A stretch of 64,000 bases of DNA. Source: Escherichia phage MRostami-2023e. The translations under genes were made by a program, and so were the position numbers. The notes beneath the pieces are model-generated. The model made no database searches. It was given only the letters and a program-made list of their open reading frames with translations, and was not told the DNA's origin. Every line of letters starts with the position of its first letter. Position 1 is the stretch's first letter. Shown here piece by piece: positions 2,824 through 20,958 of the stretch. The stretch is from sequence record OQ031495. One strand, 5' to 3'.

Positions 2824-3128
2824 TGACCACTATTGAAGTTTTTGAATATTGTTATAACAGTCCAGTATGCAATAAAAGGGCCCTTGTAGAAAATTACGAG
2901 ATTTACCATTTTAAACCTAAACGATATCGTTTGACTAAAGGTCCGTTCGCAGGGCAGCAGGTTCTTTGTACTGCTCCTAATGCACGACTGATGACTAGTA
3001 TTCCACATTTCAAAATGGAATTTATTGATGGGCCATTTAAGGGATTAATCACTCAAAGTTTAATGGCGTTTAATTCCGTCCCATTTTTGATTAAAGAAAA
3101 AACTTGGATAAATTTATTTTCTAATTGA
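2820..3128 (+). CDS. Hypothetical protein
   Basis: 102-aa ORF, start overlaps upstream stop (ATGA). Confidence 0.45.
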   Translation: MMTTIEVFEYCYNSPVCNKRALVENYEIYHFKPKRYRLTKGPFAGQQVLCTAPNARLMTSIPHFKMEFIDGPFKGLITQSLMAFNSVPFLIKEKTWINLFSN

Positions 3129-3134
3129 GGTTAT

Positions 3135-3497
3135 ATGAAAGCATATCAAATTCTTGAAGGCACACACAAAGGCACTATTTATTTTGAAGACGGTACTCAA
3201 GCCCGGATTATTGTCTCTAAGACTTTTAAAGAAGACGCTATTGTAGACCCGGAAATTTTCTACGGTTTGCATGCCCGTGAAATTGAAATTGAACATCAAC
3301 CTAAAGTTAAAATTGAAGGTGGTCAACATCTGAACGTTAACGTTCTGCGTCGTGAAACTCTGGAAGATGCAGTTAAGCATCCAGAAAAATATCCGCAGTT
3401 GACCATCCGTGTATCCGGTTATGCAGTTCGCTTTAACTCTCTGACTCCGGAACAGCAGCGCGACGTTATCGCTCGTACCTTTACTGAGAGTCTATAA
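3135..3497 (+). CDS. Autonomous glycyl-radical cofactor (GrcA/YfiD-like; T4 Y06I-type)
   Basis: C-terminal [60 protein letters not shown] carries the RVSGY glycyl-radical motif; SD GAGG upstream. Confidence 0.85.
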
Positions 3498-3977: not shown

Positions 3978-4252
3978 TGGCTNNNNNNNNNNNNNNNNNN
4001 NNNNNNNNNNNNNNNNNNNNNNNNNNNNNNNNNNNNNNNNNNNNNNNNNNNNNNNNNNNNNNNNNNNNNNNNNNNNNNNNNNNNNNNNNNNNNNNNNNNN
4101 NNNNNNNNNNNNNNNNNNNNNNNNNNNNNNNNNNNNNNNNNNNNNNNNNNNNNNNNNNNNNNNNNNNNNNNNNNNNNNNNNNNNATCAAAGAGTAGTTTA
4201 CTTCTCCTCTAGTTGTGTTACTATAGACCTGTCAACTAGAGGAGAAATCAAA

Positions 4253-5606: not shown

Positions 5607-6057
5607 AAACTATATCAAGGGCGATATTGTCGCCCTGTTTTCTAAAGGTAATAATATTGCTCATGGGTGTAATTGTTTTCATACAATGGGCGCCGGTGTA
5701 GCAGGCCAATTAGCAAAGGCTTATCCAAAAATTTTAGAAGCCGATAAACTTCAAACTGCATATGGAGACGAGTCTAAACTCGGGTCTTATTCGGTTTATG
5801 AAAAATATTTTAAGACCCATAAAGCTTATTGCTTTAATCTTTATACGCAGTTTGAGCCTGGACCTAATTTTGAGTACTCTGCTTTAATGAATTGTATAAT
5901 AGAATTAAATGAATTCGGAAAGAATAAGATAACAAAGCCTGTAATTTATATGCCAAGAATTGGTGCCGGTATTGGTGGTGGAAACTGGGATGTCATCGAA
6001 GAGATTTTAGATACGTATTCCACTAAACTAGAAATTGTGATTGTTGATTGGGAACCN
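5599..6057 (+). CDS. Macro-domain protein (TARG1/Poa1p-like), 3' end lost in masked run
   Basis: IAHGCNCFHTMGAGVAGQLAKAYP and MPRIGAGIGGGNWDV match macro-domain ADP-ribose-binding loops; start uncertain (GTG 5599 or TTG 5590). Confidence 0.55.
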
Positions 6058-6480
6058 NNNNNNNNNNNNNNNNNNNNNNNNNNNNNNNNNNNNNNNNNNN
6101 NNNNNNNNNNNNNNNNNNNNNNNNNNNNNNNNNNNNNNNNNNNNNNNNNNNNNNNNNNNNNNNNNNNNNNNNNNNNNNNNNNNNNNNNNNNNNNNNNNNN
6201 NNNNNNNNNNNNNNNNNNNNNNNNNNNNNNNNNNNNNNNNNNNNNNNNNNNNNNNNNNNNNNNNNNNNNNNNNNNNNNNNNNNNNNNNNNNNNNNNNNNN
6301 NNNNNNNNNNNNNNNNNNATGGACTGTTTTTTTTACTTTATGTAACGATGAAATGATATGTGATTTTGATTATTGGTGTTATTGCTATTGATACAATAAA
6401 GGATGTACAAATCATACAGGTGAAGGTTTCTATTCCGGGTTTCAACCGTATCCAGACTTTGTNNNNNNNNGTGAACCTAA

Positions 6481-8190: not shown

Positions 8191-8571
8191 NNNNNNNNNN
8201 NNNNNNNNNNNNNNNNNNNNNNNNNNNNNNNNNNNNNNNNNNNNNNNNNNNNNNNNNNNNNNNNNNNNNNNNNNNNNNNNNNNNNNNNNNNNNNNNNNNN
8301 NNNNNNNNNNNNNNNNNNNNNNNNNNNNNNNNNNNNNNNNNNNNNNNNNNNNNNNNNNNNNNNNNNNNNNNNNNNNNNNNNNNNNNNNNNNNNNNNNNNN
8401 NNNNNNNNNNNNNNNNNNNNNNNNNNNNNNNNNNNNNNNNNNNNNNNNNNNNNNNNNNNNNNNNNNNNNNNNNNNNNNNNNNNNNNNNNNNNNNNNNNNN
8501 NNNNNNNNNNNNNNNNNNNNNNNNNNNNNNCAAGTTGAAGAACTTTATCGACATTTAAAACACAATCGGTA

Positions 8572-14451: not shown

Positions 14452-15387
14452 ATGGCTTTTATTACACGTAAAGAACTTATCAAAGAATTTACCTCGAACG
14501 CATATACTCCAGGACCTAATCCTATCCGTATGCCTGTAAAGACTCCTGAAGAGATTGAGGAAGTCTGTTCATATTATGGGATTACTTCTCGTAAGTTTAC
14601 TCAATTTGAATGCGTTACTAACACACCCGTTAAAGAGTTCATTAAAAATGGTGAGTTCAGCCGTTTATTAGCCAAACAGAAACTTCGTAATTTTTGTATT
14701 GGCGGTGAAGGACAATATTTCGCTAAGCAGTTCCGGAATAACCTTAACAATCTGATGGCCATTGCTTCTCGTATTCGTCCTCAAGCAATTAACATGAAAC
14801 ATTTGAAATATACTTACGATAAGTTGGAAATCATGGTTATCAGTGAGAATGAGTTCACTCTTACGTATAAACCTAAGAATGATAACGTTGCTCGTGTATT
14901 TCACCAAGCGTTGGAAGTTTTAGGTGATAATATCCACCAGATTAAAGCAATTTATTCACGTGAGCTTAATATTATCAACCCCATCAAGAATAAGGGTCAT
15001 ATTGCTATCCAGGCTCGTGTATCTATTGGTAAAAAGGTTCCTGCGCCATGGTGGCACAAAGACTCTGAATACTATCAAAATCTTAAAAAGGAAAATGCAT
15101 TGTTTGAAGCATCGCTTACTGGAACCCCAATTGAACAGGCCGAAGTCCTAAGTGCTTATTCTACTTCTNNNNNNNNNNNNNNNNNNNNNNNNNNNAAACT
15201 AAAAGTTTCTAATGACCTTCTTCCGGCCGAAGATTACCATTACAATCAAATCAAGGCCACTATGGACCAACTGTCTGTTGAACTTGACAAAGCACAAGCT
15301 AAGCTTCGTGATGCTCAAAGTGTTGTAACGAATCTCCAGTTGCAGTATTCTAAACTTTTTAACGCAATGAATGCATTAAAATCATAA
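14452..15387 (+). CDS. Hypothetical protein (contains a 27-nt masked run)
   Basis: 311-aa ORF with SD GAGGA upstream. Confidence 0.5.
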   Translation: MAFITRKELIKEFTSNAYTPGPNPIRMPVKTPEEIEEVCSYYGITSRKFTQFECVTNTPVKEFIKNGEFSRLLAKQKLRNFCIGGEGQYFAKQFRNNLNNLMAIASRIRPQAINMKHLKYTYDKLEIMVISENEFTLTYKPKNDNVARVFHQALEVLGDNIHQIKAIYSRELNIINPIKNKGHIAIQARVSIGKKVPAPWWHKDSEYYQNLKKENALFEASLTGTPIEQAEVLSAYSTSXXXXXXXXXKLKVSNDLLPAEDYHYNQIKATMDQLSVELDKAQAKLRDAQSVVTNLQLQYSKLFNAMNALKS

Positions 15388-17855: not shown

Positions 17856-18026
17856 ATGCAAGTTAAATTATTGTACCGTTTATTAAAAAATGGCAAACAT
17901 GATTGGTATTTGCTTATTAAAACCGATCCGAATTTTTTCTCTGGACAACCATTTACAGTTCGTCCTACTAAACGTCAGCTTCGCAAAGCTAAACGTTCTC
18001 ATCGTAACTTTTATAGAGAATATTGA
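17856..18026 (+). CDS. Small basic hypothetical protein
   Basis: RPTKRQLRKAKRSHR tail, shared with ORF 46429-46641. Confidence 0.4.
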   Translation: MQVKLLYRLLKNGKHDWYLLIKTDPNFFSGQPFTVRPTKRQLRKAKRSHRNFYREY

Positions 18027-18027
18027 T

Positions 18028-18441
18028 ATGAATATTTCTGAAACTCGCGGTAAATGGTTCAAGATTGTTAAAGAAGATGAAGAACTACAAGTCAAGTTTC
18101 CTGAATTAAAGAAAGATACGATCATCAAGGTAATTGGTACTACTACCGAAGATGGTTATGGCGACCATGGCATTATCGAAGTGATGTTGAACACAGGTGA
18201 GAAACTTTGCATCTATGACCGTGATACTTCTCTTTGGTGCTTCTGGGAATCCCATTCAATAGATGAACTCGAAGAAATTGACCAAGTAGTTTGTGATGGT
18301 GGACTTGGCGAATTCGAAGGTGAACGTATTTCTTATGCTTTAGCTAAATTAGCCGGACAAGAAAATAACGACGGCTATGAAGGTAACCTGATGCAAGCAG
18401 CCGCAGAATACATTGAATATTTAGAAAGACGTTTAAGTTAA
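18028..18441 (+). CDS. Hypothetical acidic protein
   Basis: 137-aa ORF MNISETRGKWFKIVKED... Confidence 0.5.
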   Translation: MNISETRGKWFKIVKEDEELQVKFPELKKDTIIKVIGTTTEDGYGDHGIIEVMLNTGEKLCIYDRDTSLWCFWESHSIDELEEIDQVVCDGGLGEFEGERISYALAKLAGQENNDGYEGNLMQAAAEYIEYLERRLS

Positions 18442-18640
18442 NNNNNNNNNNNNNNNNNNNNNNNNNNNNNNNNNNNNNNNNNNNNNNNNNNNNNNNNNNN
18501 NNNNNNNNNNNNNNNNNNNNNNNNNNNNNNNNNNNNNNNNNNNNNNNNNNNNNNNNNNNNNNNNNNNNNNNNNNNNNNNNNNNNNNNNNNNNNNNNNNNN
18601 NNNNNNNNNNNNNNNNNNNNNNNNNNTTAAGTTAATAAAT

Positions 18641-18670: not shown

Positions 18671-19144
18671 ATGTTATTATCAGGCGCAAAATATAAAGAA
18701 GAAAAACAAAAATTTTATGATGCACAGAACGGTAAGTGTCCTATTTGCCACCGTGAATTAGACCCTGATGTTCAAGGTAACCATCTTGACCACGACCATG
18801 AATTAAACGGGCCAAAAGCCGGTAGAGTTCGTGGATTACTCTGTAATCTGTGCAACGCAGCAGAAGGTCAAATGAAGCATAAGTTCAACCGTTCTGGTCT
18901 TAAAGGCCGTGATGTCGACTACCTAGAATGGCTTGAAGCTCTTCTCGCTTATTTGAAACAAGATTATTCTGATAATAATATCCATCCTAATTTTGTTCCA
19001 GACAAAACTAAAGAGTTCTCAAGACTAGGTAAAGAGGAAATGATGACCGAGATGCTTCAAAGAGGATTTGAATATAATGAATCAGATACTAAAACACAAT
19101 TAATAGCTTCATTCAAAAAGCAGCTTAGAAAGAGTTTAAAATGA
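18671..19144 (+). CDS. 49: Endonuclease VII (Holliday-junction resolvase)
   Basis: MLLSGAKYKEEKQKFYDAQNGKCPICHREL...HLDHDHELNGPKAGRVRGLLCNLCNAAEGQ... near-identical to T4 gp49. Confidence 0.92.
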   Translation: MLLSGAKYKEEKQKFYDAQNGKCPICHRELDPDVQGNHLDHDHELNGPKAGRVRGLLCNLCNAAEGQMKHKFNRSGLKGRDVDYLEWLEALLAYLKQDYSDNNIHPNFVPDKTKEFSRLGKEEMMTEMLQRGFEYNESDTKTQLIASFKKQLRKSLK

Positions 19145-20958
19145 AAATTGAAAAAGAAATTGAAGGATTAATTCATAAAACTAATAAAGACCTTTTAAAC
19201 GAGAATGCTAATAAAGATTCTCGTGTTTTTCCAACTCAACGGGACCTTATGGCTGGTATTGTGTCTAAGCACATTGCCAAAAATATGGTCCCGTCTTTTA
19301 TTATGAATGCGCATGAAAGCGGAATCATTCACATGCATGATATTGATTATTCTCCTGCTCTTCCATTTACTAATTGCTGTTTAGTCGATTTAAAGGGGAT
19401 GCTTGAGAATGGATTTAAATTAGGCAATGCTCAAATTGAAACGCCTAAATCTATTGGCGTTGCTACTGCAATTATGGCACAAATTACCGCACAAGTTGCT
19501 TCACACCAATATGGCGGAACTACATTTGCGAATGTCGATAAAGTTCTTTCTCCTTATGTTAAACGCACATACGCTAAACATATTGAGGACGCAGAAAAAT
19601 GGCAAATCGCTGATGCGTTGAATTATGCCCAATCTAAAACAGAAAAAGACGTATACGATGCATTCCAAGCTTATGAATATGAAGTAAATACTCTCTTTAG
19701 TTCAAACGGACAGACTCCTTTTGTAACAATTACATTTGGTACAGGAACCGACTGGACTGAACGAATGATTCAGAAAGCAATTCTTAAAAACCGCATTAAA
19801 GGCCTTGGTCGTGATGGAATAACTCCTATTTTCCCTAAGCTTGTTATGTTCGTTGAAGAAGGTGTTAATCTTTATAAAGACGATCCGAACTATGATATTA
19901 AGCAGCTTGCTTTAGAATGTGCAAGCAAAAGAATGTATCCTGACATCATTTCGGCTAAGAACAATAAAGCTATCACCGGCTCATCTATTCCTGTTTCTCC
20001 AATGGGTTGCCGTAGTTTCTTGAGCGTATGGAAAGATTCAACTGGCAATGAAATTCTTGATGGACGCAATAATCTTGGCGTTGTAACACTGAATCTTCCT
20101 CGTATTGCGTTAGATTCTTATATTGGAACACAATTCAATGAACAGAAATTTGCCGAATTGTTCAATGAACGAATGGACCTGTGTTTTGAAGCTTTGATGT
20201 GTAGAATTAGTTCCTTAAAAGGAGTTAAAGCGACTGTTGCTCCTATTCTTTACCAAGAAGGTGCATTTGGGGTTCGTCTTAAACCTGACGACGATATAAT
20301 TGAGTTATTTAAAAACGGTAGAAGTTCAGTGTCTTTAGGATACATCGGTATTCATGAATTGAATATTCTTGTCGGCCGTGATATTGGACAAGAAATTTTA
20401 ACTAAAATGAATGCTCATCTTAAACAGTGGACTGAAAGAACCGGTTTTGCTTTTAGCTTGTATTCTACTCCTGCTGAAAACCTGTGCTATCGCTTCTGTA
20501 AACTTGATACTGAAAAATATGGAAGTGTAAAAGATGTTACTGATAAAGGCTGGTACACTAACAGTTTCCATGTTTCAGTAGAAGAAAATATTACTCCGTT
20601 TGAAAAGATTTATCGCGAAGCCCCATATCATTTCATTTCGNNNNNNNNNNNNNNNNNNNNNNNNNNNNNNNNNNNNNNNNNNNNNNNNNNNNNNNNNNNN
20701 NNNNNNNNNNNNNNNNNNNNNNNNNNNNNNNNNNNNNNNNNNNNNNNNNNNNNNNNNNNNNNNNNNNNNNNNNNNNNNNNNNNNNNNNNNNNNNNNNNNN
20801 NNNNNNNNNNNNNATTTGTTTGTTCTATGTGTGGAGAAACTGATCCTAAAAAGATGAACACAATAAGAAGAACGTGTGGTTATCTTGGAAACCCGAACGA
20901 ACGCGGATTTAATCTAGGCAAAAATAAAGAAATCATGCATAGGGTTAAACACCAATGA
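19141..20958 (+). CDS. nrdD: Anaerobic ribonucleoside-triphosphate reductase (class III; 173 nt masked inside)
   Basis: 605 aa; NCCLVDLKGML and C-terminal RRTCGYLG glycyl-radical motif with zinc-ribbon cysteines. Confidence 0.9.
   Translation: MKIEKEIEGLIHKTNKDLLNENANKDSRVFPTQRDLMAGIVSKHIAKNMVPSFIMNAHESGIIHMHDIDYSPALPFTNCCLVDLKGMLENGFKLGNAQIETPKSIGVATAIMAQITAQVASHQYGGTTFANVDKVLSPYVKRTYAKHIEDAEKWQIADALNYAQSKTEKDVYDAFQAYEYEVNTLFSSNGQTPFVTITFGTGTDWTERMIQKAILKNRIKGLGRDGITPIFPKLVMFVEEGVNLYKDDPNYDIKQLALECASKRMYPDIISAKNNKAITGSSIPVSPMGCRSFLSVWKDSTGNEILDGRNNLGVVTLNLPRIALDSYIGTQFNEQKFAELFNERMDLCFEALMCRISSLKGVKATVAPILYQEGAFGVRLKPDDDIIELFKNGRSSVSLGYIGIHELNILVGRDIGQEILTKMNAHLKQWTERTGFAFSLYSTPAENLCYRFCKLDTEKYGSVKDVTDKGWYTNSFHVSVEENITPFEKIYREAPYHFISXXXXXXXXXXXXXXXXXXXXXXXXXXXXXXXXXXXXXXXXXXXXXXXXXXXXXXXXXXFVCSMCGETDPKKMNTIRRTCGYLGNPNERGFNLGKNKEIMHRVKHQ

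Follow-up and report, generated by a model that had tools for sequence, protein, structure and literature searches.

The closest described systems to the gene studied here are vs.6 of phage T4, which encodes Y06I, and grcA (yfiD) of Escherichia coli. In the account of Wagner et al. (Knappe's group; 2001, BBRC 285:456) given in PMC8683613, T4 Y06I was activated by the pyruvate formate-lyase (PFL)-activating enzyme and restored PFL that had been cleaved by O2, as E. coli YfiD/GrcA does. The same source treats G102 of GrcA as the equivalent of the radical site G734 of PflB (PMC8683613). A second point of comparison is psbA and psbD of cyanophages, where segments of host metabolic genes were exchanged by intragenic recombination in lytic T4-like phages, resulting in mosaic genes (PMC1484495).

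The vs.6 gene examined here lies in a window (i.e., the whole 64-kb stretch of DNA that was analyzed) belonging to a T4-like phage. Over the 1.8 kb tested, Escherichia phage vB_EQ1 was 100% identical to it. As in T4, the gene is positioned between vs.7 and vs.5, encodes 120 amino acids, and is a mosaic with E. coli grcA. Very probably, it joins an old phage-specific 5' half to a conversion tract that was copied from host grcA and, most likely, renewed repeatedly. The predicted features of the gene, with nrdD as context, were as follows:

3135..3497, + strand: 120-aa ORF, vs.6/Y06I orthologue, GrcA-type autonomous glycyl radical cofactor
3127..3130, + strand: Shine-Dalgarno GAGG, 4 nt 5' of the vs.6 ATG and overlapping the vs.7 TGA stop, as read from the sequence
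3135..3312, + strand: 5' part of phage lineage, running through codon 59 and most of codon 60, from dS and dN vs. E. coli and from informative sites
3313..3487, + strand: host-derived conversion tract from Escherichia grcA; the megablast match started at 3313 in every E. coli genome
3417..3419, + strand: GGT codon for Gly95 in RVSGYAV, the glycyl-radical site, from translation and alignment to 6OWR and PFL 1H16
3488..3497, + strand: 3' junction, from base 3 of codon 118 (GAG) through AGT CTA to the stop codon, based on codon comparison among phages
19141..20958, + strand: nrdD, anaerobic class III ribonucleotide reductase (RNR), from Pfam NRDD (E = 4e-146) plus Gly_radical; context only

Judged by domain, motif, size, and orthology, the ORF at 3135-3497 is the T4 vs.6 (Y06I) orthologue and a predicted GrcA/YfiD-type cofactor. 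The window and T4 genes were 93.7% identical over 363 nt and their proteins 96% identical (115/120 residues), the C-terminal 60 residues being the same in both. Synteny with T4 was kept around the gene across the vs.8-vs.7-vs.6-vs.5-vs.4 block, and the window protein carried the phage-type N-terminus MKAYQILEG. The window gene differed from T4 vs.6 as follows: its 5' half was a Mosigvirus-type allele (17 nt and 5 aa differences), its tract had three private substitutions, and its 3' junction lay one codon further upstream (GAG AGT CTA vs. GAA AGT TTG in T4).

The Pfam Gly_radical domain (PF01228) was found on residues 60-101 of the product (E = 2e-18; 67 bits vs. a cut-off of 22), in agreement with the glycyl-radical domain that the original prediction had placed in the C-terminal half. 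The RVSGYAV motif spanned residues 92-98, and the G102/G734 equivalence, when applied to this motif, pointed to Gly95 as the radical glycine. The closest solved structure was E. coli GrcA (PDB 6OWR, E = 2e-42), with PFL residues 696-759 second. Alignments were limited to those PFL residues (1H16) and to residues 27-127 of GrcA (full-length); the vs.6 protein is small and stand-alone (~14 kDa) and is without the catalytic barrel of PFL. NCBIfam TIGR04365 gave it 158.6 bits, below the equivalog cut-off of 170 (E. coli GrcA scored 233.9), because its N-terminal half is divergent. When searched alone, this half matched no family.

E. coli GrcA/YfiD (TIGR04365, IPR011140, 6OWR) is of the same fold family and function class as the vs.6 protein and is identical to it over the last 60 residues; the phage protein is 7 residues shorter. 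The vs.6 gene belongs to a virulent phage and would be translationally coupled to vs.5, the stop of one and the ATG of the other overlapping (TAATG), whereas host grcA lies between ung and eamB. A promoter and terminator scan of the vs.6 region returned nothing above shuffled expectation. Runs of N occurred in the window at 1680-2119, 3983-4184, 6057-6318, 6463-6470, 8191-8530, 15169-15195, 18442-18626, and 20641-20813. Among the genes partly hidden by these runs were one for an internal protein, the gene that follows vs.4, a tk.4-like phosphatase ORF, and nrdD; vs.6 was untouched.

The original prediction had described the product as a spare part for oxygen-damaged PFL, acting alongside a phage anaerobic RNR, and nrdD was indeed present in the window. 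We infer the spare-part function of the window's vs.6 protein from its T4 orthologue Y06I. Under this function, the host PFL-activating enzyme PflA would put the radical on Gly95, and the radical-bearing protein would dock on PFL that oxygen had cleaved at Gly734, restoring its activity. With PFL activity restored, the flux from pyruvate to acetyl-CoA and formate would continue and be kept up in microaerobic infection. Formate would serve as the reductant of the phage class III RNR, and on our own reasoning a link between vs.6 and NrdD through formate supply is plausible. Directly upstream of nrdD, as in T4, were a PinA protease-inhibitor homologue (17890-18441) and endonuclease VII gene 49 (18671-19144).

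The last 60 codons of vs.6 (3315-3494) were compared with E. coli grcA in a codon alignment. They matched at 174 of 180 nt (96.7%) and at 60 of 60 residues; all six differences were synonymous. The same 60 residues written in the window's codon usage gave an expected identity of 78.2 +/- 2.3%. In total, 54 of the 60 codons were identical to those of grcA, against 25.4 expected (P = 3.6e-18). The host-like character first noticed in the 3' half was thus confirmed, with a stronger signal than had been described, and nucleotide identity was higher than protein conservation predicts.

The tract was found in 5,426 of 5,426 E. coli genomes by blastn. In 5,426 complete E. coli genomes, megablast of the whole window matched one place per genome, 3313-3502/3505, which corresponded to grcA; no other host-like DNA was found in the window by this search. 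The longest exact run between the window and grcA was 88 nt (3400-3487). T4 vs.6 and grcA of E. coli B (BL21) shared an exact run of 178 nt, and the tract cores of T4 and RPN187 had zero differences from E. coli grcA. Private substitutions in the window's tract were found at 3329 (C>T), 3383 (G>A), and 3399 (C>T).

Composition was dropped as a test of host origin in favor of this direct codon and nucleotide comparison, the GC3 of the 3' half being within the normal range of the window. GC3 was 0.383 in the 3' half and averaged 0.303 in the window (sd 0.069; z ~1.2). This value was not significant alone because 13% of 60-codon windows in other ORFs reached it, and the compositional signal on which the original prediction had relied is weak. 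The host-preferred codons that had been named were a mixed case. CTG was enriched (4/6 Leu codons vs. 12% in the window), as described; CGT was the phage's own preferred Arg codon (59%) and hence not diagnostic; and GCG was absent, the Ala codons of the tract being GCA, GCA, and GCT.

The 5' half had a different relationship to the host gene. Against E. coli grcA, dS was 1.6 (saturated) in codons 1-60 vs. 0.147 in codons 61-120, and dN in the 5' half was 0.84; dS in the 3' part of the T4 gene was 0.046. Within the N-terminal 60 residues, identity to the N-terminal half of GrcA was ~35% over the 40 alignable residues, with the DNA saturated there. This half was divergent and phage-like, as the original prediction had stated. 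Because the N-terminal halves are still detectably homologous, the whole of vs.6 is an old relative of grcA. The 5' half grouped with vs.6 of Jiaodavirus, Slopekvirus, and RB43 (MKAYQILEG...). Its between-clade dN/dS was 0.056/0.417 (0.13) and, by this ratio, it is under purifying selection among phages.

A three-sequence test, in which window vs.6 was treated as a child of Jiaodavirus vs.6 and E. coli grcA, placed a breakpoint between 3312 and 3320 (Fisher P = 1.6e-12). Left of the breakpoint, 65 of 82 informative sites were phage-type and 17 of 82 were host-type; right of it, 2 sites were phage-type and 28 were host-type. The host-type sites included 26 consecutive ones between 3320 and 3485. 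In the last three codons, phage-type and host-type synonymous states were mixed, in combinations that varied by phage (e.g., T4 GAA AGT TTG and REP4 GAG AGC CTG).

The spread of the tract among phages was surveyed by querying phage records with the E. coli grcA locus and 100-nt flanks. Matches came from 752 phage records, and identity was 95% or above in 624. Tracts with matching boundaries were found in ~645 independently sequenced Tequatrovirus and Mosigvirus genomes and also in metagenomic contigs. In all full-tract phage matches listed, the match started at, or no more than 5 nt from, the same base, 2 nt 5' of the GAA codon of EGGQ. The sole other match listed, a fragment of 43 nt, lay at the beginning of a record, and none of the matches listed extended over the phage vs.6 5' half or the flanks. 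A recent single transfer private to this phage does not fit a tract that is common to so many genomes and looks recurrent.

For the clade comparison, 10 T4-type and 8 Mosigvirus-type sequences were used, the window being Mosigvirus-type. Between-clade nucleotide divergence was 10-61% in vs.7, with many fixed differences, and 6-16% in the vs.6 5' half, with seven fixed differences and a dS of 0.42. In the tract (3309-3488) divergence was 2-3%, with zero fixed differences and a dS of 0.097. Divergence in vs.5 was 24-31%, with many fixed differences and a dS of ~2. The 60-nt bins adjoining the tract contained 2 and 12 fixed clade differences. Within-clade dS values in the tract (0.094 and 0.086) were equal to the between-clade value.

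The tract has a history decoupled from the phage genome around it, because clade differentiation was nil inside the tract and large in its flanks. We conclude from these divergences that the tract is younger than the split of the T4-type and Mosigvirus-type clades. The C-terminal 60 residues were invariant in 19 of 19 Tequatrovirus and Mosigvirus sequences and nearly so across hosts. Tract variants were scattered and mostly private, forming a star around the E. coli sequence. Additionally, the 5' part of vs.7 (2835-2950) was 48-61% divergent between T4-type and Mosigvirus-type phages, with 10-17% at the vs.7 3' end; this looks like a separate module replacement adjoining vs.6.

The haplotype comparison covered 12 host alleles and 19 phage tracts; two of the alleles had been chosen as best phage matches and so carry ascertainment bias. 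Phage Ozark had the complete set of three derived sites that marks E. coli allele 2013C-4282 {12G, 24A, 150T}, and EcNP1 had the complete set of allele LH50-c {24A, 105A, 156T}. The {102A} allele, obtained from four gut-metagenome contigs, was the same as the PYps32T core, and the K-12 allele {39C} was seen in four phages. For a given allele, the probability of finding its three sites together among the variants of a phage was 3e-5 to 2e-4. Altogether, 9 of 24 phage variant states were also host allele states. A pooled site-overlap test gave P = 1.4e-4 with 130 synonymous changes equally available and P = 0.09 with ~57 transition-type changes. The three haplotype matches (Ozark, EcNP1, and PYps32T) come from a small, partly ascertained allele sample, with overlap P values from 1.4e-4 to 0.09. 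More than one import of the tract from the host is the most likely history.

The strongest alternative is a single host-to-phage conversion, followed by mutation and by phage-to-phage spread between T4-type and Mosigvirus-type phages, with no continuing host exchange. Such a history would agree with the 5' junction at nearly the same base in the full-tract matches listed, with the private substitutions that several phages carry with a mild GC-to-AT bias (including those at 3329, 3383, and 3399 in the window), and with the overlap P of 0.09 under the transition-only model. It is nevertheless less parsimonious. It requires phage-to-phage transfer of precisely the 175 bp homologous to the host and nothing more, next to bins that hold 2 and 12 fixed differences. 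The three-site haplotypes that phages share with distinct E. coli alleles would have to have arisen by chance, and the Mosigvirus tract dS of 0.086 exceeds that of the flanks (0.034-0.064). We consider a single conversion unlikely, and repeated import from the host remains the preferred reading.

Phages named for other hosts also carried the tract. Tracts of Yersinia phages (PYps32T and others) and the Serratia phage PhiZZ30 were 96-98% identical to E. coli grcA, and a Hafnia phage also had an E. coli-type tract, 93.5% identical to window vs.6. Over the same stretch, Serratia and Yersinia grcA were ~81-88% identical to E. coli grcA. These identities suggest that E. coli is, now or recently, the main host of the Yersinia-, Serratia-, and Hafnia-named phages that have the tract.

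Among the bacterial genera sampled, the nearest other one over the 180 nt was Citrobacter amalonaticus, which was 92.8% identical to E. coli and 89.4% identical to the window. Salmonella and Klebsiella grcA were ~84-87% identical to E. coli grcA, with dS from 0.36 to 1.0 (Salmonella: ~84%, dS 1.0). Because E. coli differs to this extent from C. amalonaticus and Salmonella, the donor lies within Escherichia and the synonymous sites of the tract are unconstrained. With a 3' end that matched the grcA tract at only ~80%, the pflB gene was rejected as a donor. The phage tract has its place in the bacterial gene tree and is an outsider among phage sequences, which indicates transfer from host to phage. 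By these nucleotide comparisons, 3313-3487 is a gene-conversion tract of Escherichia origin that falls inside Escherichia diversity.

The same host sequences bear on the possibility that there was no recombination, i.e., that the whole gene was acquired once long ago and that its 3' half stayed host-like by protein and nucleotide constraint (codon optimization or RNA function). The invariant C-terminal 60 residues in the 19 Tequatrovirus and Mosigvirus sequences and the codon bias of grcA would be in keeping with this. Constraint cannot explain the identity, however, because the tract differs at 13-29 synonymous codons between hosts whose proteins are almost identical, and other phage genera that encode the same or nearly the same 60 residues have a nucleotide identity of only 80-84%, the chance level (78%), and of 80-89% to any sampled host. 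The tract was also nearer to E. coli than any other sampled bacterial genus is. Convergent codon optimization was excluded as well (P ~ 4e-18 for the shared codons); it fails to explain the match because the non-optimal codons AAG, CAT, TAT, and TTT are among those common to the tract and E. coli grcA. Constraint without recombination is therefore highly improbable. The 3' segment had been introduced as either a recent recombinant or strongly constrained; the first part stands (96.7% identity vs. 78%) and the second does not, given the dS of 1.0 between E. coli and Salmonella.

A consensus artefact, in which host reads from the lysate were assembled or polished into the phage sequence where host and phage are alike, is scarcely credible: the tract does coincide with the stretch on which host reads could map in a phage assembly, and 100% identity to a host allele is seen in several phages, but the tract recurs in ~645 independent genomes from many laboratories and platforms, in metagenomic contigs, and in T4 itself, many phages (the window included) have private substitutions absent from 5,426 E. 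coli genomes, and phage coverage in lysates is vastly greater than host coverage.

Other phages of E. coli had grcA homologues with lower identity: RB43 81.7%, Krischvirus 74%, and T5-like phages ~71%. Because RB43, Krischvirus, and T5-like phages show no such identity as the tract does, a host-like tract is not the product of a general process. Host tracking was also sought in Jiaodavirus, Slopekvirus, Pseudotevenvirus, Krischvirus, T5-like phages, and IMG/VR, where the nearest host differed at no fewer than 16 of 180 positions in a host sample that did not include Klebsiella pneumoniae. The T5-like phages (Demerecviridae; slur09 and Salmonella phage S124, both at 270-638) carried a grcA homologue that starts with MKAYQ, where host GrcA starts with MITGIQ. 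The 3' parts of these homologues were only ~71-75% identical to any host. The shared start suggests that MKAYQ-type grcA is one phage gene family found across unrelated phage groups.

Klebsiella phages KP1079 and Matisse, together with the metagenomic sequences L190 and L191, encoded ...ETLLDAVEH..., as in Klebsiella and Salmonella GrcA; E. coli phages encoded ...ETLEDAVKH..., as in E. coli GrcA. The nearest sampled host of L190, which is Jiaodavirus-like, was Raoultella/Klebsiella with 16-22 differences in 180 positions, K. pneumoniae grcA being outside the sample. Such matching of residues to the host could be an earlier imprint of the process proposed for the tract. One candidate second example, IMGVR_UViG_2706794630_000006 (245-697), was rejected. 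It encoded a full-length host-type GrcA (MITGIQITK...) with a tract 91% identical to Yersinia artesiana grcA, and is probably bacterial, mis-binned or prophage-adjacent DNA and not a phage grcA.

Under repeated conversion from the host, fragments of host DNA released during infection would recombine with vs.6 through the homologous-recombination machinery of T4. Crossovers would be limited to the ~180 bp of phage-host homology, and because they could fall only inside this stretch, the 5' junction would be constant and the last codons patchy. Once a tract was identical to that of the host, further conversion would be favored. If conversion recurs, the host gene would act as an external template that overwrites phage mutations and imports host alleles. 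The resulting protein would combine a phage-specific N-terminal half with a radical domain identical to that of the host, which would make this domain fully compatible with the PflA and PflB of the host. It is an even call whether the host chromosome is a standing template in this sense, with T-even phages repeatedly copying the last ~175 bp of grcA into vs.6 in natural infections and thereby matching their current host population.

In marker rescue and insertion-substitution experiments, T4 recombination copies short cloned homologous DNA into the phage genome. The proposed conversion of vs.6 would be a natural equivalent, with the difference that the donor would be the single-copy host chromosome under degradation and not a plasmid. 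As expected of an intragenic recombination tract of the cyanophage psbA kind, vs.6 has an abrupt switch of parent, a supported breakpoint, and an identity beyond protein and codon expectation that is specific to one donor lineage. Unlike psbA and psbD, vs.6 has one sharp tract of ~175 bp beside a phage-specific half, and this tract is up to 100% identical to present host alleles and is undifferentiated between two phage genera; the E. coli/T-even system is, moreover, genetically testable.

The gene and its biochemical role were already known, and the new element is evolutionary, namely a host-templated mosaic. The searchable literature on Y06I, vs.6, grcA, and yfiD contained no description of a vs.6/grcA nucleotide mosaic; key T4 reviews lie outside that coverage, and a prior mention in them is possible. 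The vs.6 case is an instance of intragenic recombination between host and phage in auxiliary metabolic genes, best described for cyanophage psbA/psbD; its tract is unusually sharp, recent, and experimentally accessible.

In the best-studied pair of virulent phage and host, one sharply delimited segment of a phage gene reproduces a host chromosomal gene almost letter for letter, with 178 nt exact in T4. Phages that degrade host DNA would thus still recombine with it at short homologies, and a phage protein that needs to fit host PflA and PflB could stay matched by such copying. T4 and hosts with a barcoded grcA could be used for measuring rates of host-to-phage gene conversion. If the host chromosome does act as a standing template, three things would follow: the tract would be a running record ("barcode") of the grcA allele of recent hosts and a possible host tracer; the Yersinia-, Serratia-, and Hafnia-named phages with an E. 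coli-type tract would have E. coli as a recent natural host; and gene conversion from host to lytic phage would be frequent enough for laboratory measurement.
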